A stretch of DNA of 64,000 nucleotides from a virus. Lineage: Duplodnaviria > Heunggongvirae > Uroviricota > Caudoviricetes. The notes under the pieces were generated by a model. The model did no database searches. It was not told where the DNA came from and was given only the letters and a program-made list of their open reading frames with translations. The position numbers and the translations under genes are program-made. Within the stretch, counting starts at the first letter, position 1; each line of letters starts with the position of its first letter. Shown one piece after another: positions 3,011-32,894 of the stretch. Where the stretch lies: the IMG/VR virus record IMGVR_UViG_3300027708_000034, positions 18,332 to 82,331 of that record. One strand, given 5' to 3'.

Positions 3011-6000
3011 ATGAGCCGACAATGTATATCGAATTTACCAGCATTAACCAATGCTACTGCTGCTGAAACCAAATTCATCGTACTGGATAGTACTGTTGAG
3101 CAGACATTAACAGTAGCAAGAGCACAGGCGTTACTAGCAACTCCTGGTCCAACTGGACCGCAGGGACCGCAAGGTGTCATAGGATATGCCGGTAGTAGGG
3201 GATATTCTGGAAGTTTGGGATATGCTGGATCTGTTGGTCCACAAGGTCCTGCCGGCCCACAGGGTCCTATTGGGTTTACTGGCAGTCGTGGATTCTCGGG
3301 ATCAGTCGGCGCCCAAGGCCCTTTGGGATTTACGGGCAGCAGGGGATATGCGGGCAGCATTGGATATACAGGAAGTGCAAGCACCGCCTCCGGATATGCT
3401 GGCAGTAAGGGCCCAACGGGTCCACAGGGGCAAATAGGCTATGCTGGAAGTGCAGCAGCCAATGCTAACACCACACAAAATATCGCCGGCGGCGCTGCTG
3501 GATCCATTCCGATTCAAGCAGCCACCAGCAGTACTACATTTATTCCATTGGGTGCTGTAGGGACTCTACTATATTCAGATGGTACTACTGCTACTTGGAT
3601 TAGCACTAGTACTATAATACCAGCATCTTCGGGACAAGCTGGCAAGGTATTGGTTAACTGTATTGCAGCAAACAGCGCCACAACATACTATCCTGGATTG
3701 TTTTCAACTCCGGGAGTATACGACACTCCCGGAATTAGCACAAAACTATCATTTGTTGCATCCACAGGTGTCTTATCGGCACCTAAGATACAATTAGGCA
3801 ATGGAGCAGTAGTTCAAGATGGTACTAACGGATCATTGACCTTCGGCTCAGCAACATCTAATCAAGGGGTCAATGCTGTCGCTATCGGTAAATGTGCAGG
3901 TAAGACTAGCCAAGGCGCAGCCGCTATTGCAATTGGTTGCAAGGCCGGAGTTACTAGCCAAGCCGCTAACAGCATTATATTAAATGCATCTAGTCAAACT
4001 GTAAATTCCAGTGTGGCTGGATTTTTTGTAGCGCCTGTTAGACGTGATAGTACTTGTGCCGGAACAGCTTATTCAATATACTATAATACTGCCACTAGCG
4101 AAGTAACGTATTCTGCTACTGTTCCCGCTGGATATACGGGTAGTGCAAGCACCGCAGCTGGATATATAGGCAGTAGAGGGCCGACAGGTCCACAAGGTCC
4201 ATCGGGGCCTACTGGTCCAACGGGCCCACAAGGGCCATTGGGATATACTGGTAGTATTGGTCCGACTGGTGTAGGACTCAGTGGTTATTTTGGATCAAGA
4301 GGATACACTGGGTCAGTTGGCCCGACTGGGCCTCAAGGTGCTATCGGTTATACAGGCAGCATGGGAACCACAGGCACTACTGGTTATTCGGGGTCAATAG
4401 GGGTGCAGGGCCCACAAGGATATGCGGGCAGTAGAGGTTATACTGGTAGCCAAGGCTCCACTGGAACTACTGGTTATTCAGGGTCAATAGGTGCAGGCAT
4501 TGCACTCAAAGGCACCGCTGCAACTACAGGTACTGGATATTCGGGAATTTATGGAGTCGTACCCCAAGGAACTGCCGTACAAGGCGATGCTGTTTTAATC
4601 AGTTCAAACGAACATTTATGGATCAGTAGCGGTGTTAGTGGCGGCCCAAGCAACCCGTGCGGATGGTCAGACGGTGGAAGTCTAGCTGGACCGCAGGGAC
4701 CGCAGGGATATACAGGATCTGCTGGCGCAGTGGGGCCGCAGGGCCCGCAAGGAATTACCGGCCCGCAGGGACCACAGGGATATACAGGATCTGCTAGCAC
4801 TGCCAGTGGATATGTTGGCTCAACAGGACCAACCGGTCCAACTGGTCCGCAGGGGCCTATAGGGTATGCTGGATCTGCAGGTGCAGCCAGTACAATGAAT
4901 TTCAAAGGAACTGTACTTGGTGTTACCTGTTTGCCAAAAACAGGACAGACTGTTGGTAATGCATGGGTAGTTTACAATGGCGGTTCACCAGGTAGTGGAA
5001 AAAGTTCCAACGGATCTACTTGGTTCTACGTCAATGGCGCAAGTGATGCGGGAAGATGTGTAAGTTGCGGTCCTTATTATGGATTTATTTACATTGGAAA
5101 CTTTACCGGGTATACTGGTAGTAAAGGTGACCTAGGATATTCCGGATCAGCTGGGCCGCAGGGACCTTTAGGATACTCTGGCAGCGGCGGCGGCTTTGGC
5201 TGCAGAGGATATACTGGCAGCATCGGTTATGCTGGCAGTGCTGGATATTGGGGTTCTACAGGCTATGTAGGTAGCCAAGGGACTTCATTTAACATCGTTG
5301 GTACAGTAGCAGGATACTTAAACTTGCCCGGATCAGGATCTGCAGGTGACGGATATGTTACTCAGAACAACAATACTATTTGGTTGTATAAAGGCTATGC
5401 TGGATCTGCATATGCAGGTTGTGGCAGTGCATTGGGCAAACAATATAATGGATGGTTGGCTATCGGACTATTGGGTGGCACTGGTTATACTGGCAGTGCA
5501 GGATACAATGGTAGTGCAGGATATACAGGATCTGCTAGCACCCAAGCTGGTCCACAAGGACCAGCCGGATATTCAGGCAGTGCAGGAGCCGCAGGTTGCA
5601 AGGGCTGTATAGGATACACCGGCAGTGCTGGAACATCGGGTATAGGTACCAAAGGATGTATTGGATTTACCGGTAGTGCAGGTGCTGGTTACGGCGGTAG
5701 TATTGGCTCAACTGGTTATACAGGCAGTGGTGGCGCTGGATATACAGGAAGCATAGGTAACGCCGGTCCACAAGGACCAATTGGATTTTCGGGAAGTGGC
5801 GGCGCTGGATACAATGGTAGTAGAGGATATGATGGATCAGTTGGTCCTAGTGGCCCAACTGGACCTACTGGACCACAGGGGTGTATGGGATACACAGGAT
5901 CTGCCAGCACCGCATCGGGGTATGTTGGTTCAACTGGATTTACTGGCAGTATAGGTAATTTGGGATATTATGGTAGTATAGGTTGCAGGGGATATACCGG

Positions 6001-6691
6001 ATCATCTGGTGCATTACCGTGCTGTGCCGGCCCTTGTAAACTCTACGCAAGAGTTTGGTGTAGTGGTCAAGTTAGAGGACCATTGTTATATCCAACTCTA
6101 GTGGCCAGATCAGGTACATGTACTGTCTACATGTCCGGAGCAAGTCCGTCAAACTTGTTTAGCTTCTGTGCTGCTAACGGTAAAGTAACAATTGGCGGGG
6201 CAGTATGTGCCAACGGCAACATAACCTCAGCTCAAGGCGTCCGCGCCTGCGGGTCCGTAACATCTGTGCAAAAGATGTATGCCCAAGGTGCATTGTGTGT
6301 CACTGGAAAAATCTGTGCATCATCATGTATTTCTACGCTGGGTAGTGTGATTGCCGCGGGCAACGTCATTGGTTATTGTGCAGCTTCTGATAGAAGATTA
6401 AAACAAAACATTAGACCAATCGCAGACGCGTTGGATAAAATTAGAACACTACAGGGTGTATTGTACGACTGGACTGACGAGTTCATGGAAACAGTCCCGG
6501 ATAATATTTCCAGACATGATACCGGATTGATTGCCCAGGATGTTCAGCAGGTCCTACCAGAGGTAGTGTTCCTCAGAGAAAACGGATACTTGGGTATTAA
6601 GTATGACAAAGTCGTAGGATTGATTGTACAAGCAATCAACGAACTAGCAGAAAAAGTAGATGCTATAGAGAAAACTCTAGCATCGGAATAA
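3011..6691 (+). CDS. Collagen-like tail fiber/tailspike protein with C-terminal S74 intramolecular chaperone (auto-cleaving) domain
   Basis: Many G-x-y triplet runs ([20 protein letters not shown]...). The C-terminus has the SDRRLKQNI...LQGVLYDW...[15 protein letters not shown] signature of the phage fiber chaperone/peptidase S74 domain. Confidence 0.85.
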
Positions 6692-10404: not shown

Positions 10405-11052
10405 GTGAAAAAGCCCAAAATAGCAGTATTCATGCATCAACCCATGTGCTCGGTACAATCGGGCAACGGGATCATTAACGCCCTAAAATCACACTACGAT
10501 TTCAAAATATTCACCAAACATGAATTAGAGTCTGTATTCTTCAAAGATGTTGATATGGTTGCCTTTCCCGGTGGGTTTGGCAATTCTGATAGTTATGACT
10601 ACTTGCTGAAAATAAACGGCGACCCCATAAGGGAATTTGTCGATCGTGGCGGCAAGTATCTAGGCATTTGTATGGGCGCCTATTGGACCGGCAGTCACTA
10701 CTTTGACCTGCTGGATGGCATTGATGCTGTACAATACTACAAACGACCCACGGCCTGTACACATCGCCCACATACAAAGGCCATGCCCGTGACATGGAAT
10801 GGGCGGCCTGAAAAGATGTTCTTCAATGATGGATGCACCTTTGTGGGCAACCCTAAAAAGTATGAAACCATAGCCACTTATTCAAATGGTGATCCAATGG
10901 CCATCATACAAAACGGTATGGGATTAGTCGGCTGTCATCCAGAGAGCGAACAGTTTTGGTATGACAGTTATCGTTGGATGCCACCACATTGGCATGAGCA
11001 CAGACATCACAGCCTATTGCTTAAATTCGTGGACCAGCTGATGCAGCGGTAG
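10405..11052 (+). CDS. Class I glutamine amidotransferase-like protein (GATase1/BPL_N-like)
   Basis: GICMGAYW nucleophile-elbow (G-x-C-x-G) and an upstream AFPGGFG motif. The 3' end overlaps the convergent minus-strand gene by about 30 nt. Confidence 0.5.
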   Translation: MKKPKIAVFMHQPMCSVQSGNGIINALKSHYDFKIFTKHELESVFFKDVDMVAFPGGFGNSDSYDYLLKINGDPIREFVDRGGKYLGICMGAYWTGSHYFDLLDGIDAVQYYKRPTACTHRPHTKAMPVTWNGRPEKMFFNDGCTFVGNPKKYETIATYSNGDPMAIIQNGMGLVGCHPESEQFWYDSYRWMPPHWHEHRHHSLLLKFVDQLMQR

Positions 11053-12727
11053 CAGCTTTAGTACCCATTGGTATTTTAGATCCATCTGGCTTATTTAGAT
11101 TTTGTATACCCGGGGGATCTTGTGTAGTCGGCACAGGTTGCTGTTGTTGTACCGGTGCAGGTTGCTGTTGTACTGGTGCAGGTTGTTGCATAGTTTGCTG
11201 TTGAACAGGTTCTGATTGATTGGGATTCTGTTCTATATAGTTTTCGATATCGGCAATATTCTTTAACAACGGACCCATATTAATTCTATTTCTAACAGCT
11301 TTTGATCTATTATCAAATTGAGATCTAAGATCAATCAATCTAGCTGGATCACCTCTTGATGGGGTGAATTTTTTGGCCAAATCAGTTTTAGGCAATCCGT
11401 ATATAGAAATTACATATCCCTTTTCTTGTCTCAGCTCAACAAACAATTTAAGTTGTTTTAGTGCTTGTTCGAACTCTGTTCCAAAAGACAACTCTGCAAA
11501 GGCTCTTTTACTATCCGGTTCTAAGATAACCATTTCAACGCCTTCTTCTTTTCTGGTCAGATGTGTTAGTAATCCTTGATAAACATTTTCAATAAGGCTG
11601 TCTGGATTGCTTTTTGCCAAAACTTGTAACTGTTTGCTAATGTATTGATAACTATGAGAAAAAGCATTTTGAAAGTTTTGTTCTTTTTTATCATTCCAAG
11701 TAGCAGGTGCTTTGTAAGGAATTTCGTAGAATTTTTTTCTAAGATCTTCTGATAATGGTATTCCTACAATAGAGGTAAAAAAATCATTTAAGTTATCAAA
11801 ATTATGTCCGCCGGCCTGTCCAAACTGTTCAACGCCGCCTGCCTTAACACTTAGCAGTCTCTTTGCGGTTTCTTTACCGTCGATTAAAATCTTCAAGTCT
11901 ACCTTGGTTGTATTTTGATTTTCTTTTTCTGCACCATCGCTGATGACATCGATCTTATTTTCTCTCGGGTCCGTTACTGCTTCGTTAACTGCGCCAGATA
12001 TGCGTTTGGATTTATTAGCATATTCAATTGCACTTTTTAAACGTTGATCAAAAAGTGCAATTTTGTCTTTAGGAACATTATAGTCTTTTAAAGTTTTTCC
12101 TCTACTGTCTTCATTTAACCAAGCATAAAATGCTTTATTATCCATGAAGGGAATACTTACTTTAAACTCTAATATATCTTTTCCTGCTTGAATTTGTATA
12201 CTTCCTTTATTTCTTGCCAACTCTTTGGCTATGCTTATTACCTGCATTTCTGTAATAATTGAACCTTGGTTGGAAAATTTAGCAGCGACAGCACACCCTA
12301 AAATTGCCTCGGATACATTTCCCATGTTAGGATCAATTTCACCTTTGACTTTTTCATCTTTATAAATTTGTTTTGGAATAACATTTTCCCACTCTTCGCC
12401 AGTAGGTTCGAAAGTCTGATCATCAACTTCTGCCACAGTGAAAAACACATTACTGAAGTCTTTAAGTTTTATAGCACGTTTCATTTGTGCGATAACATTC
12501 TCAGGGTTTTGTATAATTCCTAAAAATCTATTCTCAGTTTTTTCTGCTTTTCTTGAACCGGGCAACTTTTCAGAAGTTACAACATTGAAAGCATACACTT
12601 GATTGTTAATTAACCCGTCAAAAAATAAATTATAATACTGAGGTTTAAGCCAATCGTTATCATTGCCTGTCTGGCTCATGAGCTTTTCAAGTAGTATTGA
12701 TTCGGATAAAAATTCTCTTGCTCGCAT
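11021..12727 (-). CDS. Putative head internal protein with T4-like capsid targeting sequence (start taken at MRAREFLSE)
   Basis: The N-terminus MRAREFLSE resembles the T4 internal-protein capsid targeting sequence MKTYQEFIAE, including the L/I-x-E prohead-protease site. C-terminal PAPVQQQ repeats. It is the last gene of the dnaK operon. Confidence 0.5.
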   Translation of the reverse strand: MRAREFLSESILLEKLMSQTGNDNDWLKPQYYNLFFDGLINNQVYAFNVVTSEKLPGSRKAEKTENRFLGIIQNPENVIAQMKRAIKLKDFSNVFFTVAEVDDQTFEPTGEEWENVIPKQIYKDEKVKGEIDPNMGNVSEAILGCAVAAKFSNQGSIITEMQVISIAKELARNKGSIQIQAGKDILEFKVSIPFMDNKAFYAWLNEDSRGKTLKDYNVPKDKIALFDQRLKSAIEYANKSKRISGAVNEAVTDPRENKIDVISDGAEKENQNTTKVDLKILIDGKETAKRLLSVKAGGVEQFGQAGGHNFDNLNDFFTSIVGIPLSEDLRKKFYEIPYKAPATWNDKKEQNFQNAFSHSYQYISKQLQVLAKSNPDSLIENVYQGLLTHLTRKEEGVEMVILEPDSKRAFAELSFGTEFEQALKQLKLFVELRQEKGYVISIYGLPKTDLAKKFTPSRGDPARLIDLRSQFDNRSKAVRNRINMGPLLKNIADIENYIEQNPNQSEPVQQQTMQQPAPVQQQPAPVQQQQPVPTTQDPPGIQNLNKPDGSKIPMGTKAATAASAGPRI

Positions 12728-12737
12728 AGTAGTATAT

Positions 12738-13409
12738 TTATACCACTTCTGGGAACAGGACTTCGTCCACAAACCGCTTCATCTTAGATTCATCTATGCC
12801 CATACTGACCATGCTGCGTATGACATGGGGGTTTTGCTTTTGATAATAGCAATAACGGTTCTGCGCCATATGGAAATCTGCTAGATCCTGCTGCGTATTG
12901 CCTACATTTAATAGATAATAATCCAAGGTTCTTGTGGCCAGCTCGCATAGATTATTCAACTCTTCCTCGGTTGATACATTGCCAGCAGCAACCATGTTGG
13001 GACTAAAAATTTGCTGAGCCCATTCTGGCAGATTCCTAGACTTACCCCACTCGTAAAACAATGCTTCGGTCCCGAACCACTTCATCATAGGATGGGCAGG
13101 ATCTCCTGCTGCGCTGAAGTCGCAGAATGCACCTGTGATTTTATTGGGACCGCAGACTGCATCAAAGCCCCAAATAGGGCTAGGATCGTTAAAGTGTGGA
13201 AATACTGTAGAGTGCAGTATATAGATATTGTGGCTCTCCCTATGGTCTACGATTTCCACATGGGCTCTGCGATATCGCGGGCTGGTCCAAAGGTCATTGT
13301 GCCATTCATAATCACTACTGATCTTGCCGTGTACAGCCTCACCGGTGGCATTGAATCTCGATTTGATATCCTCAGCTAATTTTTCAATTTTGTCCCAAAC
13401 GTTCGCCAT
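12738..13409 (-). CDS. Ferredoxin-dependent bilin reductase (PcyA/PebS/PcyX family)
   Basis: WTSPRYRRAHVEIV...ILHSTVFPHFNDPSPIWGFDAVCGPNKITGAFCDFS aligns with the PcyA core (YQTPQFRKMHLEL...ILHCVMFPEP...[20 protein letters not shown]). Confidence 0.85.
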   Translation of the reverse strand: MANVWDKIEKLAEDIKSRFNATGEAVHGKISSDYEWHNDLWTSPRYRRAHVEIVDHRESHNIYILHSTVFPHFNDPSPIWGFDAVCGPNKITGAFCDFSAAGDPAHPMMKWFGTEALFYEWGKSRNLPEWAQQIFSPNMVAAGNVSTEEELNNLCELATRTLDYYLLNVGNTQQDLADFHMAQNRYCYYQKQNPHVIRSMVSMGIDESKMKRFVDEVLFPEVV

Positions 13410-13926
13410 ATGATTCCATTATTTTAATCGCCCAGTCAAAGGCTATGTTAGCTTCATCTCCCATGTCGTCTGACAGCATACTACGCATATTAGTCATCAA
13501 CATTTTAGGATCTTCAAAGTCTAAATGTGAGTGCGGTGCGTCCACGATCTTCTTGATCATCTGCCCACCAAACAAGTCGCCCATATGCCAAGTGTATAAG
13601 TGTGCCATGATGCGTTTAGGATCATCTAGTGATCTAATGTAGCTGGCGTAATCCTTTGTCTCTTGCTTATATGTATTGTAACTACCCGTGGGTTTATCCA
13701 TGCTTTGGTAATCATCCATTATCAGTCCTGCCCGTTCAATCCCGGGCAATGCATTTAGCAATCCTGCTTTTCGAGCAGCATGTTCGATCTCTTTATACCA
13801 AAGTTGTTTTTGATAGGTAAAATCTACCCATAGTTCAAAGGGCAATGTTTTGTCAAATACTGCTTTCATGAAAGCAGTGCTTTCGGCAGCAGTGTGTTTG
13901 TCTTTGGTGAGATCTTTTAGGCTCAT
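13384..13926 (-). CDS. Heme oxygenase (short phage-type HO)
   Basis: LKDLTKDKHTAAESTAFMKAV matches HO-1 LKEATKEVHTQAENAEFMRNF. AHLYTWHMGDLFGGQMIKKI matches [20 protein letters not shown]. Confidence 0.85.
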   Translation of the reverse strand: MSLKDLTKDKHTAAESTAFMKAVFDKTLPFELWVDFTYQKQLWYKEIEHAARKAGLLNALPGIERAGLIMDDYQSMDKPTGSYNTYKQETKDYASYIRSLDDPKRIMAHLYTWHMGDLFGGQMIKKIVDAPHSHLDFEDPKMLMTNMRSMLSDDMGDEANIAFDWAIKIMESYGERLGQN

Positions 13927-14225
13927 TCCTGTACTGCCTTAGTGACCAAAGGATGACCGTTTAGTCTAGACAGCTCAGTGGCCTCTGCGACTTTCTGTTC
14001 GGCGATTTCATAACTGTAGATGCCCACTGCCGCACTACCTTGTTCATGAATCTGATAAGTCAATCTAATAGCAGATTCAGTGCTTATAGAAAACACCTTA
14101 ACCAGCAATGCTATCACAAATTCTACAGGAGTATAATCGTCGTTCATGACGACTACTTTATATTTGCTAGGTTCTTTTAACTTCCTAGTAACTCTTGTTT
14201 TTTCTTCAATTGCAGTATCAGTCAT
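13923..14225 (-). CDS. clpS: ClpS ATP-dependent Clp protease adaptor (N-degron recognin)
   Basis: YKVVVMNDDYTPVEFVIALLVKVF...GHPL is colinear with E. coli ClpS ([24 protein letters not shown]...EHPL). Confidence 0.85.
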   Translation of the reverse strand: MTDTAIEEKTRVTRKLKEPSKYKVVVMNDDYTPVEFVIALLVKVFSISTESAIRLTYQIHEQGSAAVGIYSYEIAEQKVAEATELSRLNGHPLVTKAVQE

Positions 14226-14269: not shown

Positions 14270-14704
14270 TTAATCGCCTTTGATAGTTAGTACACGCGGC
14301 TTCAATGCTTCGGGTACCACGCGATCTATTTTAATGGTTAAAACACCATTTTTAATAGCGCCTTCGCCTACGATCATATGTTCAGCCAGTGTCCACGAAC
14401 GAGTAAAGTCGCGGAATGCCAAACCACGGTGTAGAAATTCAGCATCGACATCACTGTCTTTGCTGCGAACACCTTTAACGATCAATTGGTTTTGATCGAT
14501 CTCAACCGCAACTTCATCCTTGGCAAAACCTGTCACAGCGATTTCGATCTCGTAAGTATCTTCATCGTGCTTGACGATATTGTAAGGTGGATAGCTGTTG
14601 TTGATTTGATTTGCAAAACGATTTTCGAAATCGTTGAACATGGTATCAAAACCTAGTAGTGCTCTATTAAGAGCATGGGTGTCAAAACGTACTAATTGTG
14701 TCAT
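14270..14704 (-). CDS. Small heat shock protein Hsp20 (IbpA/IbpB-like)
   Basis: FDTMFNDFENRF...YPPYNIVKHDEDTYEIEIAVTGFAKDEV...VPEALKPRVLTI is colinear with E. coli IbpA (alpha-crystallin domain, IxI-like C-terminus). Confidence 0.9.
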   Translation of the reverse strand: MTQLVRFDTHALNRALLGFDTMFNDFENRFANQINNSYPPYNIVKHDEDTYEIEIAVTGFAKDEVAVEIDQNQLIVKGVRSKDSDVDAEFLHRGLAFRDFTRSWTLAEHMIVGEGAIKNGVLTIKIDRVVPEALKPRVLTIKGD

Positions 14705-14791: not shown

Positions 14792-16693
14792 TTATACAGT
14801 TTCCTTAGCCTCTGCGTCAACGACTCCATCAGCCGCATCCTTTTTAGCCTGTTCTTCAGCCTTCTTGGCTGCTTCCTCGGCTTGGTTTTTCTTAGCAGTG
14901 ACTGGGTTCATGGCTTGATAAAGTTTAGGAATAGTATCTTGGATGAGTTTTACATCATCGCCCGACATGGCATCCTCAAGCGCCTTGACCGCGTCTTCAG
15001 CAGTAGCACGTTCTTCTTCAGTGAGTTGGTCACTGTATTTTTCTAGATCCTCTTTGAATCCGTTCAATGTACCTTCTGCACGATTGCGTTCCTCAATCAA
15101 CTCGCGCTGCTTCTTATCTGCTTCAGCATTGAGTTCAGCATCTTGGACCATGCGATCGATTTCCTCTTTGGTCAATCCGCTGTCGGACTTGATAGTGATC
15201 TTGTTCTCTTTGCCTGTGCCTTTATCAGCTGCTTTGATATTCATGATACCGTTGGCATCGATATCTAGCGTGACTTCGATCTGTGGAACACCTTTGCGAG
15301 CAGGTGGGATGCCTTCTAATTTGAATTCGCCCAACAATTTATTATGCTGGACGAATTCACGCTCGCCTTGGAATACTTTGATGTCCACTGCAGATTGATT
15401 ATCTTCGGCTGTTGAGAACACTTGACTATGCTTGGTAGGAATAGTGGTATTCTTTTGAATCAACTTGGCCATCACCCCGCCCATGGTTTCGATACCAAGA
15501 CTCAATGGGGTAACGTCTAGCAATAGAACGTCTGTACGTCCACCACCTAGCACATCGCCTTGGATAGCAGCACCTGCGGCCACTGCTTCGTCTGGATTGA
15601 CGTCTTTGCGAGGAGCCTTGCCAAACAACTTCTCAACTGTTTCAACTACCTTAGGCATACGTGTCATACCACCGACAAGGATAACTTCGTCGATATCGCT
15701 GGCTGTGACTTTGGCATCTGCCATAGCTGTCTTGCATGGCTCGATACTGCGTTGGATCAGTTCGTCTACCAAACTTTCCAATTTAGCACGGGTCAACTTA
15801 ACGTTCATGTGTTTAGGACCTGATGCATCTGCTGTGATGTAAGGCAAGTTAACATCGGTCTGTGCTGAACTTGACAGTTCAATCTTGGCCTTTTCTGCTG
15901 CCTCTTTAAGACGTTGTAGTGCCAACATGTCTTTCTTGAGATCAACGCCGTTGTCCCGCTTGAATTCATCGACCAAGAAGTCCATGATACGTTGGTCAAA
16001 GTCTTCACCACCCAGGAATGTATCACCGTTGGTGCTTAGTACTTCGATTTGTTTCTCGCCATCAACATTGGCAATTTCGATGATGGATACGTCAAATGTA
16101 CCGCCACCCAAGTCATATACAGCAATCTTGCGATCACGCTTGTCTGCTTTATCAACACCATAGGCCAGTGCAGCAGCAGTAGGTTCGTTGATGATACGCA
16201 ACACTTCAAGTCCAGCGATCTTACCTGCATCTTTAGTTGCTTGACGTTGCTGGTCGTTGAAGTAGGCAGGAACTGTGATAACAGCCTGCGTGACTTCGTG
16301 TCCCAAATAGTCCTCAGCAGTCAGTTTCATCTTGCGAAGTACTTCAGCTGAAATCTGTGGTGGGGCAAGTTCTTGTTCGTTGGCCTTGACCCAAGCATCG
16401 CCATTACTGGCTTCGATGATTTTGTAGGGCATCAGATCGATGTCCTTCTGCACAGCCTGTTCTTTGAACTTACGTCCAATCAAACGCTTGGCTGCATAAA
16501 TTGTGTTTTTTGGATTGGTGATTGCTTGTCGTTTGGCACTTGCACCTACCAGAATTTCATCGCTAGCATATGCAATGATGCTGGGAGTAGTCCTCGCACC
16601 TTCGCTGTTTTCGATTACTTTGGGGATACCGTTTTCAATAACGGCTACGCATGAATTGGTTGTACCGAGGTCGATACCGATTACTTTACTCAT
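14792..16693 (-). CDS. dnaK: Molecular chaperone DnaK (bacterial-type Hsp70)
   Basis: N-terminus [31 protein letters not shown], and an acidic, lid-like C-terminus. Full length 633 aa. Confidence 0.95.
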
Positions 16694-16771: not shown

Positions 16772-16800
16772 AGTATAGCTAGATTAGCTGGATGTGTCAA
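16772..16800 (-). promoter_or_regulatory. Sigma70-type promoter for dnaK (minus strand: TTGACA-N17-TATACT)
   Basis: -35 TTGACA (RC of 16795-16800), 17-nt spacer, -10 TATACT (RC of 16772-16777). Sits about 70 nt upstream of the dnaK ATG. Confidence 0.5.
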
Positions 16801-17038
16801 CGTGGTCCGCAGCTTTTTCGACTCCACGCATGGCTTCGTCATATTCTCTTCTACTCTTTCCCACATCGAAATTATCAGGCACAGATTCTCGGATGGCAGT
16901 TAAAATTGGATGTAATAGTTTACTTGTGATTCCTCGGCTCATGTCTTCCATGACCTCTGCAGGATCGTCACCATTGGCGATCCGTTGAAGGGCCCGACCT
17001 TTTTCGAACATTTCTACTCTAGCCGCCCATGACTCCAT
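16784..17038 (-). CDS. Orphan glutamyl-tRNA reductase (HemA) C-terminal dimerisation-domain-like protein, 85 aa from the internal Met METMESW
   Basis: RALQRIANGDDPAEVMEDMSRGITSKLLHPILTAIRE parallels the GluTR dimerisation domain (E. coli [37 protein letters not shown], B. subtilis GIVNKLLHDPVVRLKE). No catalytic or NADPH domain is present. The longer 153-aa ORF form overlaps the upstream gene. Confidence 0.4.
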   Translation of the reverse strand: MESWAARVEMFEKGRALQRIANGDDPAEVMEDMSRGITSKLLHPILTAIRESVPDNFDVGKSRREYDEAMRGVEKAADHVDTSS

Positions 17039-17042
17039 TGTT

Positions 17043-17348
17043 TCACCCGGTTTTATTTTCACGATTAGACTTAATATGATGTCCGTATTTAAGCACAAAA
17101 AAAGTAGCGTACTTTTCTGTATAAAAAGCAAATACAGCATTGGGCGCAGGTATTGGTGGATCGTTGTATGTTCTATATGGAGCAGGATGATACGCCCAAT
17201 CAAAATCGTGACCCATGATCCATCCCTGTTCTCGTAGTTCTTCAACTATGTCCAACAGTGCGGGCACTTTGATATCGTGGAGTGTTATTTGATTCATGAC
17301 CACCTTATCAAGAACATGGTCAGGTCCTGTGGTCGTTTGAAATACCAC
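17043..17348 (-). CDS. Hypothetical protein (true start probably the internal Met MNQITLHD)
   Basis: ORF in the minus-strand gene train. Its N-terminal region overlaps the upstream paralog gene. Confidence 0.4.
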   Translation of the reverse strand: MVFQTTTGPDHVLDKVVMNQITLHDIKVPALLDIVEELREQGWIMGHDFDWAYHPAPYRTYNDPPIPAPNAVFAFYTEKYATFFVLKYGHHIKSNRENKTG

Positions 17349-17563
17349 CTGCCGTCGTGATAGACACAGGTTTCAGATTTGAAAGTTTCTGCACACCATT
17401 GGCTTTGATCCCATAACTCACGGCCAGGAGTGAGCGCATGGGCCGCTGGGGTGCTATGAGTCAGTCGAACTCTGCGGCGGCCGTAATCAATGATCAATAC
17501 GGGCCGTTCTGCTGTTATGACCACCTCTGCTGTCATAACCACCTCAGGATAAACATAGTCCAT
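17294..17563 (-). CDS. Small protein, TMFILRWS family member 1 (C-terminus TMFLIRWS)
   Basis: Shares the C-terminal motif W-x-F-x(6-7)-TMF(I/L)(L/I)RW(S/L) with the next two genes. Its start overlaps the end of the upstream paralog. Confidence 0.5.
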   Translation of the reverse strand: MDYVYPEVVMTAEVVITAERPVLIIDYGRRRVRLTHSTPAAHALTPGRELWDQSQWCAETFKSETCVYHDGRWYFKRPQDLTMFLIRWS

Positions 17564-17793
17564 TGTTGCTCAGTAAATTCAAAGGTCACCCAAGAATTTT
17601 CACTGCGATACATTCTATTCATACCAAAATATTCAGGCGCTGTTGAAAATAATCCGTCGAATCCATGCTCACGCCAACTTTCCTGCATATCATCTGGTAA
17701 CTGATTTACGATAACATCTTTAACCATTCTCCACCCGGCCTTCTCCGCATGATCGTCTATCCCCATTTCAGCACCTAATACTATCATGACCAC
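17533..17793 (-). CDS. Small protein, TMFILRWS family member 2 (C-terminus TMFILRWL)
   Basis: Same C-terminal motif. Overlapping start/stop with its neighbours. Confidence 0.5.
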   Translation of the reverse strand: MVMIVLGAEMGIDDHAEKAGWRMVKDVIVNQLPDDMQESWREHGFDGLFSTAPEYFGMNRMYRSENSWVTFEFTEQQWTMFILRWL

Positions 17794-18074
17794 CTCAAGA
17801 TAAACATAGTGCGATCCCGCTCATCACGGAACCACAACTTTTGATTACTGCCTATACAGCGAGCATTCGCCGATGACCAATCACTCTCTCCTATAGTTTC
17901 AGTGATCCAATCAGACATATCAAGCCATTCGTCCGCAGAGTAATTCAATGGTTTGACCCAATAAGGATATTTAGGTTGTATCTCAGCATAGCCGGTTTCA
18001 AGACGTTTTGCAGGTATAAAACTATCAACATCATCTACCCATCTTGCTTGAGACATAGCACGTTTCTTAAACAT
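17784..18074 (-). CDS. Small protein, TMFILRWS family member 3 (C-terminus TMFILRWS)
   Basis: Same C-terminal motif. Confidence 0.5.
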   Translation of the reverse strand: MFKKRAMSQARWVDDVDSFIPAKRLETGYAEIQPKYPYWVKPLNYSADEWLDMSDWITETIGESDWSSANARCIGSNQKLWFRDERDRTMFILRWS

Positions 18075-18321
18075 TAATCATCTTACCAACATGTTCCACA
18101 GTGAGATCATTGTTGGGCACGATAGGAGCGTTCCACATCAAGGCCATCATCAATGCGTCCTTGTTGCTGTTAAAAACAAAGTCCATATGCTCGGTATCGA
18201 CACGGGTATGAAATCTATCACCAGGTAGGCCAAAGTATTCTACAGCCCATGCGCAGACTTCATTCCATTTTTGCTCATTATCGAATTCACGACCCCATGC
18301 TATGCGTACTGTGCTGCTCAT
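18067..18321 (-). CDS. Small protein, divergent relative of the TMFILRWS family (internal DFVFNSNKDALMMALMWNA)
   Basis: Motif-like segment F-x-F-x5-ALMMALMW followed by a C-terminal extension. Adjacent to the family. Confidence 0.4.
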   Translation of the reverse strand: MSSTVRIAWGREFDNEQKWNEVCAWAVEYFGLPGDRFHTRVDTEHMDFVFNSNKDALMMALMWNAPIVPNNDLTVEHVGKMINV

Positions 18322-18542
18322 GTCTGCTTCTTAGGATCTTCGATTTTAGCGTCGATACAGGTGCCTTCTAGTATGGTCATCTTTCCGGCATTGGCCTGCT
18401 CAGCAACTTCCAGCATATGTATTTTTTGACTGTCGATGCTGGCTCTGCATTGTGCCTCACTTCGATAAACTGTTTGGGCCTGCATAAAATTACAGTTGCC
18501 ATTCATACAGATGAACAGCACAGGTATAAAAATTTCAATCAT
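18318..18542 (-). CDS. Small hypothetical protein with hydrophobic N-terminus and four Cys
   Basis: ORF in an ATGA-overlap chain. IFIPVLFICMNGNC N-terminal hydrophobic segment. Confidence 0.4.
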   Translation of the reverse strand: MIEIFIPVLFICMNGNCNFMQAQTVYRSEAQCRASIDSQKIHMLEVAEQANAGKMTILEGTCIDAKIEDPKKQT

Positions 18543-19601: not shown

Positions 19602-19996
19602 GTTATCTTAACCTTGTGTGTTTCTGCTCGATCGCTGTACAACTTATGGCCGCGTTCCCTGATCAATTCTGCTGTAAATTGTGGGTGTTCCTCCCACTGT
19701 TCTCGCCAAAATTTCTCATCCATTTCTTCAGTACAATCCACAGCATAGATTTCATAATGCCGCTGTGAATTGTATTTGGCCCGCAATATTAAATTTCGGA
19801 CGATACCATCTAGTGGATTTTTTATTGTGGGCTTTTCGCTGAGAATACGGATTAAATTTTGCTGTTCAATGTGCTCATATTGAGAGATAGGAACGATGGA
19901 TTCGATACCCATGTTATCCCAACTAAAGATAAATGCGTTTTTGGTTGCCATGCCACTATTATACACTAATTCATTAATCTTGTCAAGGATTTCCAA
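19598..19996 (-). CDS. Hypothetical protein (132 aa)
   Basis: ORF with a 4-nt overlap to the downstream gene. Confidence 0.45.
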   Translation of the reverse strand: MEILDKINELVYNSGMATKNAFIFSWDNMGIESIVPISQYEHIEQQNLIRILSEKPTIKNPLDGIVRNLILRAKYNSQRHYEIYAVDCTEEMDEKFWREQWEEHPQFTAELIRERGHKLYSDRAETHKVKIT

Positions 19997-20023: not shown

Positions 20024-20446
20024 ATGTTATCTAAAATTAAGAAAGTACTTTGGTTTACAGCAGGTATGCTGTTTTTAGGCCTGGCCTATATTGGTATTAT
20101 CGTTCCTGGAATTCCTTGGTCGACACCAAGTCTTATTGCAACATACTGCTTCGCCCGTAGCAGTAAACGGTTCCACGACTACATGATGAACCATAAACTA
20201 TTTGGACCGTTCATTCGTGATTGGCAAGATGGTAGTGTATTTCCAACCAAAGGCAAATGGTTCATGTTTATCAGCATGGATTGTAGCCTTGTGATCTTTT
20301 GGTTTGCTACACAGAACTGGAAAGCTACGATGGGCATGGGCATATTCTTTGCTCTGATTATACTATGGGCAAGCCGATTGCCAGGCAGCAAAGAAGAAGC
20401 TCTACGCAGAAAAGAAGCTGGCGAAAAATTAGGCTGGTTTCGTTAA
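20024..20446 (+). CDS. DUF454/YbaN-like inner membrane protein
   Basis: GIIVPGIPWSTPSLIATYCFARSSKRFHDYMMNHKLFGPFIRDWQ parallels E. coli YbaN ([39 protein letters not shown]). Confidence 0.7.
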   Translation: MLSKIKKVLWFTAGMLFLGLAYIGIIVPGIPWSTPSLIATYCFARSSKRFHDYMMNHKLFGPFIRDWQDGSVFPTKGKWFMFISMDCSLVIFWFATQNWKATMGMGIFFALIILWASRLPGSKEEALRRKEAGEKLGWFR

Positions 20447-32479: not shown

Positions 32480-32574
32480 TTTGGTTGTTTTGATAATAAG
32501 GTAAGTCCTACCTCACCAAAGCCTAAGCGGCGATGGAATATAACTCGTCGTTTGCAGTTATGAAATTTGCTTGA

Positions 32575-32802
32575 TTAACGGTCATCGCCTACCGTGTTGC
32601 CGTCGCCACTATCTAGCCCAATCGATCCTGTGTCAGGCCCAACATAAAGAAACTTTGGAATAGGATTATTAAATCCTTTAAATCCTGTAAAACGATATCC
32701 TAGATTAGGAATATCCCAAAGTAAAGGTGCCCAACACACTCTTTTTACTGTGTCATCTTTGTCTACTACAACAAAATACTGTTTTACTTTTTCCAATTTC
32801 AT
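32575..32802 (-). CDS. Small hypothetical protein (ATG at 32802; the track shows a TTG start one codon upstream)
   Basis: ORF. Preceded by a GC-rich structured leader. Confidence 0.4.
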   Translation of the reverse strand: MKLEKVKQYFVVVDKDDTVKRVCWAPLLWDIPNLGYRFTGFKGFNNPIPKFLYVGPDTGSIGLDSGDGNTVGDDR

Positions 32803-32894
32803 CAAATTTCCTTATGGTGGACCTGCCGGGCACTGCCCCCGGGTCTTGGCCTCCTTCGTTTTGAAGGGATTACAACAATAACTCTTACTTATCT

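Follow-up and report, generated by a model that had tools for sequence, protein, structure and literature searches.

The stretch of viral DNA described here comprises 64,000 nucleotides of the IMG/VR record IMGVR_UViG_3300027708_000034 (Caudoviricetes; positions 18,332 to 82,331 of that record) and is referred to in its full length as the window. On its minus strand lies a small gene whose product corresponds to the core of the dimerisation domain of glutamyl-tRNA reductase (GluTR; HemA/GtrR), and which we call GDL, for GluTR-dimerisation-domain-like. A preliminary description of the window had pointed to an open reading frame (ORF) at 16784-17038; this ORF is present on the minus strand and conserved, and it is a real gene. 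Read from the ATG at 17038, it holds 84 codons and a stop (16784..17038; MESWAARVEMFEKGRALQRIANGDDPAEVMEDMSRGITSKLLHPILTAIRESVPDNFDVGKSRREYDEAMRGVEKAADHVDTSS) and encodes 84 residues, not the 85 first given. The full product is probably a protein of 92 residues that begins at a GTG at 17062, 8 codons 5′ of the internal Met, which places the gene at 16784..17062 with its stop codon at 16784-16786. This start is preferred because homologues begin there with Met and many of them have no internal Met. In an alignment of 38 sequences, most start at the GTG position with M(K/R)xxxxE(S/T), as in MKIKPGES... and MRKRPDET..., and the internal Met is missing from many, as in MKIKQGETIESW. The JGI contigs L012 and L014 carry identical 92-residue gene calls, and on identical JGI contigs the start has been called either way. 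The upstream gene (17043..17348, minus strand; 101 residues), one of five small tandem paralogues, ends with a TGA 4 nt before the ATG at 17038 and overlaps the GTG-started GDL gene by 20 nt, and its homologues are found 5′ of GDL at other loci. A longer overlapping ORF, which the preliminary description had allowed might be the real product, reaches 153 residues from a TTG at 17245 and was rejected because it runs in another frame through this conserved upstream gene.

Profile comparisons relate the GDL product to GluTR. The window protein matches the Pfam family GlutR_dimer (PF00745) with an E value of 7.9e-7 and 29.8 bits, above the gathering score of 22.9, and GDL residues 3-53 align with profile positions 31-81 of 99. 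The preliminary description of a dimerisation domain and nothing else therefore stands for the core of that domain and not for its whole length. PF00745 is matched at E ≤ 0.01 by all 38 aligned homologues of what we term lineage 1 (best E 1.7e-7), and it is the top Pfam family for each of the eight homologues tested from a sister lineage, lineage 2 (E 1e-6 to 2.3e-4), six of which score above 22.9 bits. GlutR_dimer is thus the best Pfam family in 46 of 46 members tested, and no other family recurs. In hhalign comparisons, the GDL family profile aligned over 42 columns with 20 enterobacterial GluTR C-termini at a probability of 95.6% (E 1.1e-8), and against full-length E. coli HemA alone it aligned the same region to residues 361-400 (E 0.0018); the GluTR sequences compared are enterobacterial, and a search with the E. 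coli HemA C-terminus yielded short enterobacterial fragments only. The NCBIfam hemA equivalog gives weak matches at model positions 328-385 of 412 (12.6 bits vs a cut-off of 381), and a search with the GDL profile for the closest full-length GluTRs returned family members alone. The likeness to the GluTR C-terminal domain that had been noticed by eye is thereby borne out by Pfam and hhalign alike. The E. coli HemA segment quoted for it was correct, the E. coli GluTR fragment P0256 being 100% identical, and the GDL peptide quoted with it, GDDPAEVMEDMSRGITSKLLHPILTAIRE, corresponds to residues 23-51.

The core shared with GluTR spans residues 13-54 in the 84-residue numbering (KGRALQRIANGDDPAEVMEDMSRGITSKLLHPILTAIRESVP; 16877..17002, minus strand) and corresponds in hhalign and PF00745 alignments approximately to E. 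coli HemA 360-401. It comprises the end of helix 1, the loop and helix 2, and carries the common signature (K/R)AL..I..G.D...V...(M/L)....(T/I)..(K/R)L(L/I)H.P; the C-terminal 30 residues of GDL are family-specific and do not align to GluTR. A Pfam scan of GDL found no catalytic domain, no NADPH-binding domain (PF01488) and no other Pfam domain, in agreement with the preliminary description. Since the catalytic and NADPH domains are missing and the members are nearly all 55-110 residues long, an enzymatic role for GDL is impossible. For the same lack of domains, the name 'glutamyl-tRNA reductase' that JGI gives to many members is a misnomer. Judged by these profile matches, GDL is a stand-alone homologue of the GluTR dimerisation-domain core. 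Chance resemblance is unlikely because PF00745 is matched in both lineages and because of the hhalign probability. In addition, the GluTR-like signature is kept in lineage-2 members that are 40-45% identical to the window protein, which suggests continued selection on that surface or fold.

The GDL family is large, and phage-like metagenomic contigs are the only place where it occurs. When 5.8 billion proteins were searched with the single sequence, 106 homologues were returned, all of 61-106 residues and with 52%-98% identity, and a profile search of 1.84 billion representatives gave 200 clusters at E ≤ 1e-3. Among the 150 profile matches listed, less two spurious repeat proteins, lengths run from 54 to 151 residues, nearly all of them 55-110. 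The spurious matches, the giant kinesin-like public proteins P0176 and P0214, fit the profile only through some 25 tandem copies of a VMEDMQRRLTKEL / 'PVAIVMPDVMEDMQRRLTKELINCGTMTD' repeat. A profile search of a larger collection gave at least 552 clusters at E ≤ 10. No GDL copy was found in 185,579 cellular genomes by a pattern scan with tblastn, GenBank phages gave no DNA match to the window and no protein match to GDL, no isolate carries the gene, and no GDL family was found in PHROGs. An apparent fusion of GDL with rubrerythrin at locus L118 is a read-through across a degraded tRNA-Leu gene and was discarded. Pairwise dN/dS values of 0.09-0.54 show that GDL is under purifying selection; for most relatives, synonymous sites have reached saturation in the comparison with the window.

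An AlphaFold2 model of GDL has a predicted local distance difference test (pLDDT) score of 86 and contains helices at residues 2-21, 26-52 and 59-70 followed by a disordered tail. The first two helices score above 90, and the last blocks fall to 63 and then 47. In the 38-sequence lineage-1 alignment, the invariant positions are E12, A16, R19, I20, A21, G23, M33, K40, P44, Y66, D78 and H79. Of these, the nine from E12 to P44 fall within the GluTR-like core or next to it, and Y66 and the ADH motif lie outside it. The invariant D78 and H79 belong to a C-terminal motif, A-D-H-V-D (residues 77-81; 16796..16810, minus strand), which sits in a tail that the model suggests is probably disordered. Most lineage-2 members keep the motif as (A/S)DH(V/M).

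Two sigma-70-like promoters are predicted around GDL. The first, at 19958..19986 on the minus strand, is a perfect consensus (TTGACA-17-TATAAT, 12 of 12 matches), and the genes from 19996 to 16784 lie on one strand with short gaps or overlaps; this promoter is likely the start of an early unit that comprises about ten genes, GDL being the last. The second (TTGACA-17-TATACT, 11 of 12 matches; 16772..16800, minus strand) overlaps the last GDL codons and points into the downstream DnaK gene, with its -35 hexamer inside the V-D-T codons of the GDL tail. The same placement, 17 nt before the GDL stop, occurs at most close lineage-1 loci, and at several lineage-2 loci a sigma-70-like promoter begins 3 nt past the GDL stop. 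No terminator was found between the GDL unit and the downstream unit, so read-through from the GDL unit is possible. The hexamer TTGACA is held by the V-D-(T/A/I) codons in the window and at L001, L003, L010 and L096-L098, and because it is embedded in codons, this stretch is under dual coding and regulatory constraint. The -35 hexamer may therefore add constraint on the VD pair; it leaves the conservation of ADH unexplained.

In the window, the minus strand carries in order five small tandem paralogues, GDL, DnaK, HSP20, ClpS, heme oxygenase, bilin reductase and a conserved unknown protein. The phage DnaK (HSP70; Pfam) lies directly downstream of GDL at 14792..16693, followed by the small heat-shock protein HSP20 (14270..14704; PF00011, E 3.1e-15), the ClpS adaptor (13923..14225; PF02617, E 6.9e-28), heme oxygenase (13384..13926; PF01126, E 4.8e-13) and a ferredoxin-dependent bilin reductase of the PcyA/PcyX-like type (12738..13409; PF05996, E 1.8e-20), all on the minus strand. 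The series HSP20-ClpS-heme oxygenase-bilin reductase, with or without DnaK, follows GDL at 27 loci (the window and 26 others), and at these loci ClpX lies 5-9 kb from GDL; DnaK is missing from the GDL loci L001, L008 and L010. The window heme oxygenase is about 50% identical by eye to the vHemO of phage genomes from Grosse Fuchskuhle (PMC11480375). The nearest cultured relative of the window bilin reductase is the enzyme of Pelagibacter phage Mosig, at 40% identity; neither the GDL gene nor the ClpS and HSP20 neighbours are present in Mosig. At one locus (L006, 13653-14994), two tandem ferredoxin-dependent bilin reductase genes follow heme oxygenase. The 583-residue protein after the bilin reductase (11021..12772, minus strand) belongs to no Pfam family and has a weak FolB-domain match (E 0.001). 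A weakly similar gene (24-33% identity) occupies its position at six related loci, and the other related loci have there a gene of 355-568 residues with no Pfam family and no detected similarity to the window protein. Directly upstream of GDL, the five tandem paralogues (17043..18321, minus strand; 84-101 residues) have a C-terminal motif, W..E.F ... F....D.TMF(I/L)LRW(S/L), in common and match no Pfam or PHROG family.

At 16 loci of lineage 2, GDL lies inside a tRNA array of up to 28 tRNA genes, followed by rubrerythrin or by AhpC and an AhpD-like protein. At several of these loci GDL stands between tRNA-Gly(UCC) and tRNA-Leu(UAA), and arrays of 17-28 tRNA genes at L100, L119, L126 and L128 (for example L100, 5032-11034) include tRNA-Glu(UUC), a curious association given that the substrate of GluTR is Glu-tRNA(Glu). 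The genes after GDL encode rubrerythrin/ferritin-like proteins, AhpC peroxiredoxin and AhpD-like proteins of the CMD family (L122, 7326-7775; L126, 10873-11927; L128, 6850-7452), and this oxidative-stress set occupies the position of the HSP20-ClpS-heme oxygenase set. Recurring upstream neighbours of GDL, again in both lineages, are a metallophosphoesterase and a D-Ala-D-Ala carboxypeptidase. The neighbours in both lineages have in common a theme of heme, iron, redox or oxidative stress and proteolysis, which is weak evidence but compatible with a link to GluTR. Three kilobases upstream of GDL, the window also carries a gene for a DUF454 (YbaN-like) membrane protein (20024..20446, plus strand). 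Homologues of this protein occur within 3 kb of a phage 5-aminolaevulinic acid (ALA) synthase on 12 other viral contigs (L136-L138, L140, L145, L146, L176, L181, L186, L190, L203 and L210), and the DUF454 protein may be a recurring partner of phage tetrapyrrole genes.

The wider gene content of the window is typical of phages and includes a collagen-like tail fibre with an endosialidase-chaperone domain, ribonucleotide reductase, ClpX, a porin, a Band 7 protein, RimK and glycosyltransferases. The fibre candidate, a collagen-repeat protein of 1226 residues with a C-terminal endosialidase-chaperone (Peptidase_S74) domain (3011..6691, plus strand), is likely a tail fibre with a self-cleaving chaperone. 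Relatives lie on contigs of up to 270 kb, also together with rIIB and ribosomal protein S21; the GC content is 43%. The samples are freshwater lakes, including Grosse Fuchskuhle, and one cluster comes from the marine GOS data set. Betaproteobacteria use the C5 pathway (PMC11480375), and the hosts are probably Betaproteobacteria. Such a host is favoured because the nearest relatives of the phage DnaK are in Burkholderiales (71-74% identity), ahead of Gammaproteobacteria (64-70%), in a candidate set of cellular sequences biased by the search patterns, and because the lineage-2 locus L122 carries a full-length, permuted transfer-messenger RNA (tmRNA) of the beta type (4102-4500; beta_tmRNA, RF01850, 126 bits; tag ANDEMFALAA). 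Another sister-lineage locus, L113, has a tmRNA with the tag ANDSQFALAA (13559-13998), and the window itself has a permuted, two-piece tmRNA on its minus strand (32521..32892; tag ANDELYSIAA) that scores 122.6 bits with the Rfam model tmRNA_permuted.

The homology to GluTR invites a hypothesis about function. GDL would be an early phage protein of about 92 residues and three helices, derived from or homologous to the GluTR dimerisation core, with all else lost. GluTR is the enzyme that commits Glu-tRNA(Glu) to tetrapyrrole synthesis, and its dimerisation involves three helices per monomer; the V-shaped dimer is thought to cradle a dimer of GSAM, and heme-bound HemA is degraded by Lon and ClpAP (PMC6399207). 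The isolated dimerisation domain of Arabidopsis GluTR is a stable unit that has been crystallised with the tetratricopeptide repeat (TPR) domain of the inhibitor FLU (PMC4726326). The simplest explanation for an early phage protein reduced to the dimerisation core is a mimic. GDL may act as a viral 'microprotein' whose GluTR-like helix-loop-helix pairs with the dimerisation domain of host GluTR, where it would replace one subunit of the V-shaped dimer or cap monomers. Such pairing could alter GluTR activity, its coupling to GSAM or its proteolytic stability, and the (A/S)DH(V/M) tail might contact a second partner or surface. In net effect, the C5 pathway would likely be removed from host control during infection, so that either Glu-tRNA(Glu) is spared for translation or new porphyrin and heme are limited. 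Three benefits for the phage are plausible: Glu-tRNA(Glu) would be spared for translation, photoreactive porphyrins would be limited, and heme supply would be decoupled from host feedback. Other phage genes would serve heme breakdown (heme oxygenase, bilin reductase), proteostasis (DnaK, HSP20, ClpS, ClpX) and, in the sister lineage, the response to oxidative stress (rubrerythrin, AhpC). The end of an early-type unit of small genes is a usual place for host-takeover proteins, and GDL appears to occupy that position. Related freshwater phages carry an ALA synthase of their own, and its describers proposed that the phage gains from freed Glu-tRNA(Glu) (PMC11480375). We regard binding of host GluTR by GDL as the best single hypothesis and hold it tentatively, as one that could well prove wrong; the binding itself, the direction of its effect and the role of the tail are all things we infer. 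The fuller scenario is rather unlikely as a whole: a widespread phage early family would mimic the GluTR dimerisation domain, form heterodimers with the host enzyme and shut down or hijack the committed, tRNA-dependent step of tetrapyrrole synthesis, so freeing Glu-tRNA(Glu) for translation and curbing porphyrin phototoxicity; heme metabolism would meanwhile be re-routed by phage ALA synthase, heme oxygenase and bilin reductase.

Several observations weigh against binding of GluTR by GDL. At the level of the protein, the match to GluTR extends over some 42-50 residues only and leaves out the third helix and the invariant ADH motif. The 99 positions of PF00745 are not wholly covered, since only about positions 28-84, roughly half of the domain, are aligned across members, and the (A/S)DH(V/M) tail motif has no counterpart in the enterobacterial GluTR C-termini compared. 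Fold searches with the GDL model did not retrieve GluTR and found generic helical hairpins only, and a PDB sequence profile search reached the Arabidopsis dimerisation domain (4yvq_A) at an E value of only 0.21; an RSC8 match in the same search was spurious. At the level of the genome, GDL is predicted to be the last gene of the upstream early unit and not the first of the ClpS/heme oxygenase unit, because a predicted promoter overlaps its 3′ end and another heads the upstream string of genes. None of the 16 lineage-2 loci has HSP20, ClpS, heme oxygenase or bilin reductase within 10 kb, so linkage of GDL to hemO and bilin reductase, found at 27 loci, is not constant. The preliminary description had placed GDL beside a heme oxygenase/ClpS operon. 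This arrangement recurs at the 27 loci, but DnaK and HSP20 lie between, the transcription units are separate and the arrangement is not universal. The phage ALA synthase gene valaS is very common on IMG/VR freshwater contigs (at least 565 matches), but it is absent from the window and from the 10 kb around any GDL copy. Finally, the window tmRNA scores best with an alphaproteobacterial model (alpha_tmRNA, 67.8 bits, part of the model only), and alphaproteobacteria are without GluTR; a host of this kind is less likely than a betaproteobacterial one. The dominant-negative or stabilising modulation of host HemA put forward in the preliminary description is plausible as a hypothesis, and its support by genomic association is weaker than that description held.

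The main rival to GluTR binding is that GDL is an exapted scaffold. In this explanation, which we consider nearly as probable as GluTR binding, the GluTR hairpin has been kept only as a self-dimerising module, the tail and third helix bind an unrelated target of host or phage, for instance a protease, chaperone, translation factor or RNA polymerase, and the protein has nothing to do with tetrapyrroles. The invariant residues most specific to the family, Y66, D78 and H79, do lie outside the GluTR-like core and in the low-pLDDT tail, and the conserved core positions may be mere determinants of the fold. Likewise, the separation of GDL from the heme oxygenase transcription unit, and its conservation in a lineage that has no nearby heme genes and places it inside a tRNA array, are in keeping with a target outside heme metabolism. 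However, the GluTR signature is detectable in every member tested, down to about 40% identity, no alternative family scores comparably with GlutR_dimer, and a heme, iron and redox theme is common to the neighbours in both lineages.

Two further explanations are improbable. GDL could be a decoy that leaves GluTR itself untouched and titrates either a protease adaptor or a host factor which, like FLU in plants, recognises the GluTR dimerisation domain; GluTR would then be indirectly stabilised or de-repressed, and heme supply raised for the phage heme oxygenase and bilin reductase. Plant regulators do dock on this domain (PMC4726326). A phage that turns heme into bilins may need more heme, and both ClpS and ClpX are encoded nearby. 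Against a decoy, the sister lineage has no heme oxygenase within 10 kb, and we know of no bacterial factor that binds the GluTR dimerisation domain, although no exhaustive search for one was made. Equally, we give little credence to GDL as an accessory of the phage chaperone and protease set (DnaK, HSP20, ClpS, ClpX), for example as a co-chaperone or a substrate-delivering adaptor. The gene does lie directly 5′ of DnaK or HSP20 at 27 loci with ClpX 5-9 kb off, and a folded domain with a flexible tail and a short conserved motif would be, by analogy, the usual build of a protease adaptor. However, several GDL loci are without DnaK, in lineage 2 the 10 kb around GDL contain neither a chaperone gene nor a Clp gene, and neither Pfam nor NCBIfam relates GDL to GrpE, DnaJ, SspB or another known adaptor.

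The weakest alternative, that the matched region, being short and helical, reflects chance or convergent likeness of amphipathic helices and that GDL is perhaps a lambda-Gam-like nuclease inhibitor or unrelated to either, is very improbable, since weak Gam matches (Pfam PF06064, E 0.067; Gam-like phrog_259 in PHROGs, E 0.074), an SWA motif and HQVD-like C-terminus common by eye to lambda Gam, and low hhalign probabilities against single sequences are set against a profile-profile probability of 95.6% for GluTR vs 1.3% for Gam and GlutR_dimer as the best Pfam family in 46/46 members. Lambda Gam was itself rejected as an identity for GDL: PF06064 reaches 13.9 bits vs a cut-off of 25, and the look-alike motifs require inconsistent alignment offsets (51-52 vs 42 residues).

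In plants and most bacteria, the synthesis of heme, chlorophyll and B12 passes through GluTR as its regulated gate. Known phage enzymes make ALA and degrade heme, and none is known to act on this host gate. If GDL does bind GluTR, viruses would have in such a domain-only mimic a new means of controlling a metabolic enzyme. It would be the first case of a virus regulating the C5 pathway at the protein level, and of a bacterial virus directing a 'microprotein' against a metabolic enzyme. The unexplained heme oxygenase and bilin reductase genes that phages of non-photosynthetic hosts carry would gain a regulatory layer, and GluTR could be perturbed with a compact, genetically encoded tool. Whatever the target, GDL represents a large, strongly conserved phage protein family that is mis-annotated in public metagenomes as 'glutamyl-tRNA reductase'.

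Comparison with known systems places GDL in several contexts. It is like the GluTR dimerisation domain (PF00745; E. coli HemA approximately 320-418; Arabidopsis PDB 4YVQ) in the signature of its helix-loop-helix core and in having three helices, which in GDL are predicted. Unlike GluTR, it stands alone, without a spinal helix, catalytic domain or NADPH domain, and unlike the dimerisation domain it has a diverged third helix and an extra (A/S)DH(V/M) tail and is encoded by phages. MicroProteins are dominant-negative single-domain proteins, such as Id, which acts against basic helix-loop-helix (bHLH) factors, and LITTLE ZIPPER, which acts against HD-ZIPIII proteins. Like them, GDL consists only of the oligomerisation domain of a larger multidomain protein, and for its core this is so family-wide; microProteins are eukaryotic regulators of transcription factors, whereas GDL is viral, its would-be target is a bacterial metabolic enzyme and its mode of action is putative.

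Among post-translational regulators of GluTR, which include plant FLU, GluTR-binding protein (GBP), HemX of S. aureus and turnover by Lon and ClpAP, FLU acts through the dimerisation domain (PMC4726326; PMC5801465; PMC6399207). Under the proposed mechanism, GDL would likewise control ALA synthesis at the protein level. It has no sequence relationship to the TPR protein FLU, to GBP or to HemX, and it would mimic its target's own domain instead of presenting a separate binding fold. The phage tetrapyrrole genes hemO, pebS/pcyA/pcyX and valaS (PMC11480375; Chen et al. 2020, bioRxiv 10.1101/2020.02.13.942896) come from the same kind of large freshwater T4-like phages as GDL. Wegner et al. 2024 described hemO, pcyA/X and valaS in freshwater phages, with Grosse Fuchskuhle genomes of 179-342 kb and 41% GC (PMC11480375), and the vHemO of these genomes is clearly related to the window heme oxygenase. 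The text and supplements of that study make no mention of a GDL gene, of ClpS or of a GluTR fragment, and Chen et al. 2020 do not mention the GDL gene; as the preliminary description had supposed, no such phage gene was found in the literature searched. In the window, GDL lies 2.9 kb from the hemO-bilin reductase pair and, unlike those phage genes, it does not encode an enzyme and is also found in phages without a nearby hemO. The GDL family is thus a stand-alone form of a known domain; it is confined to phage-like contigs, and the literature searched contains no description of it.

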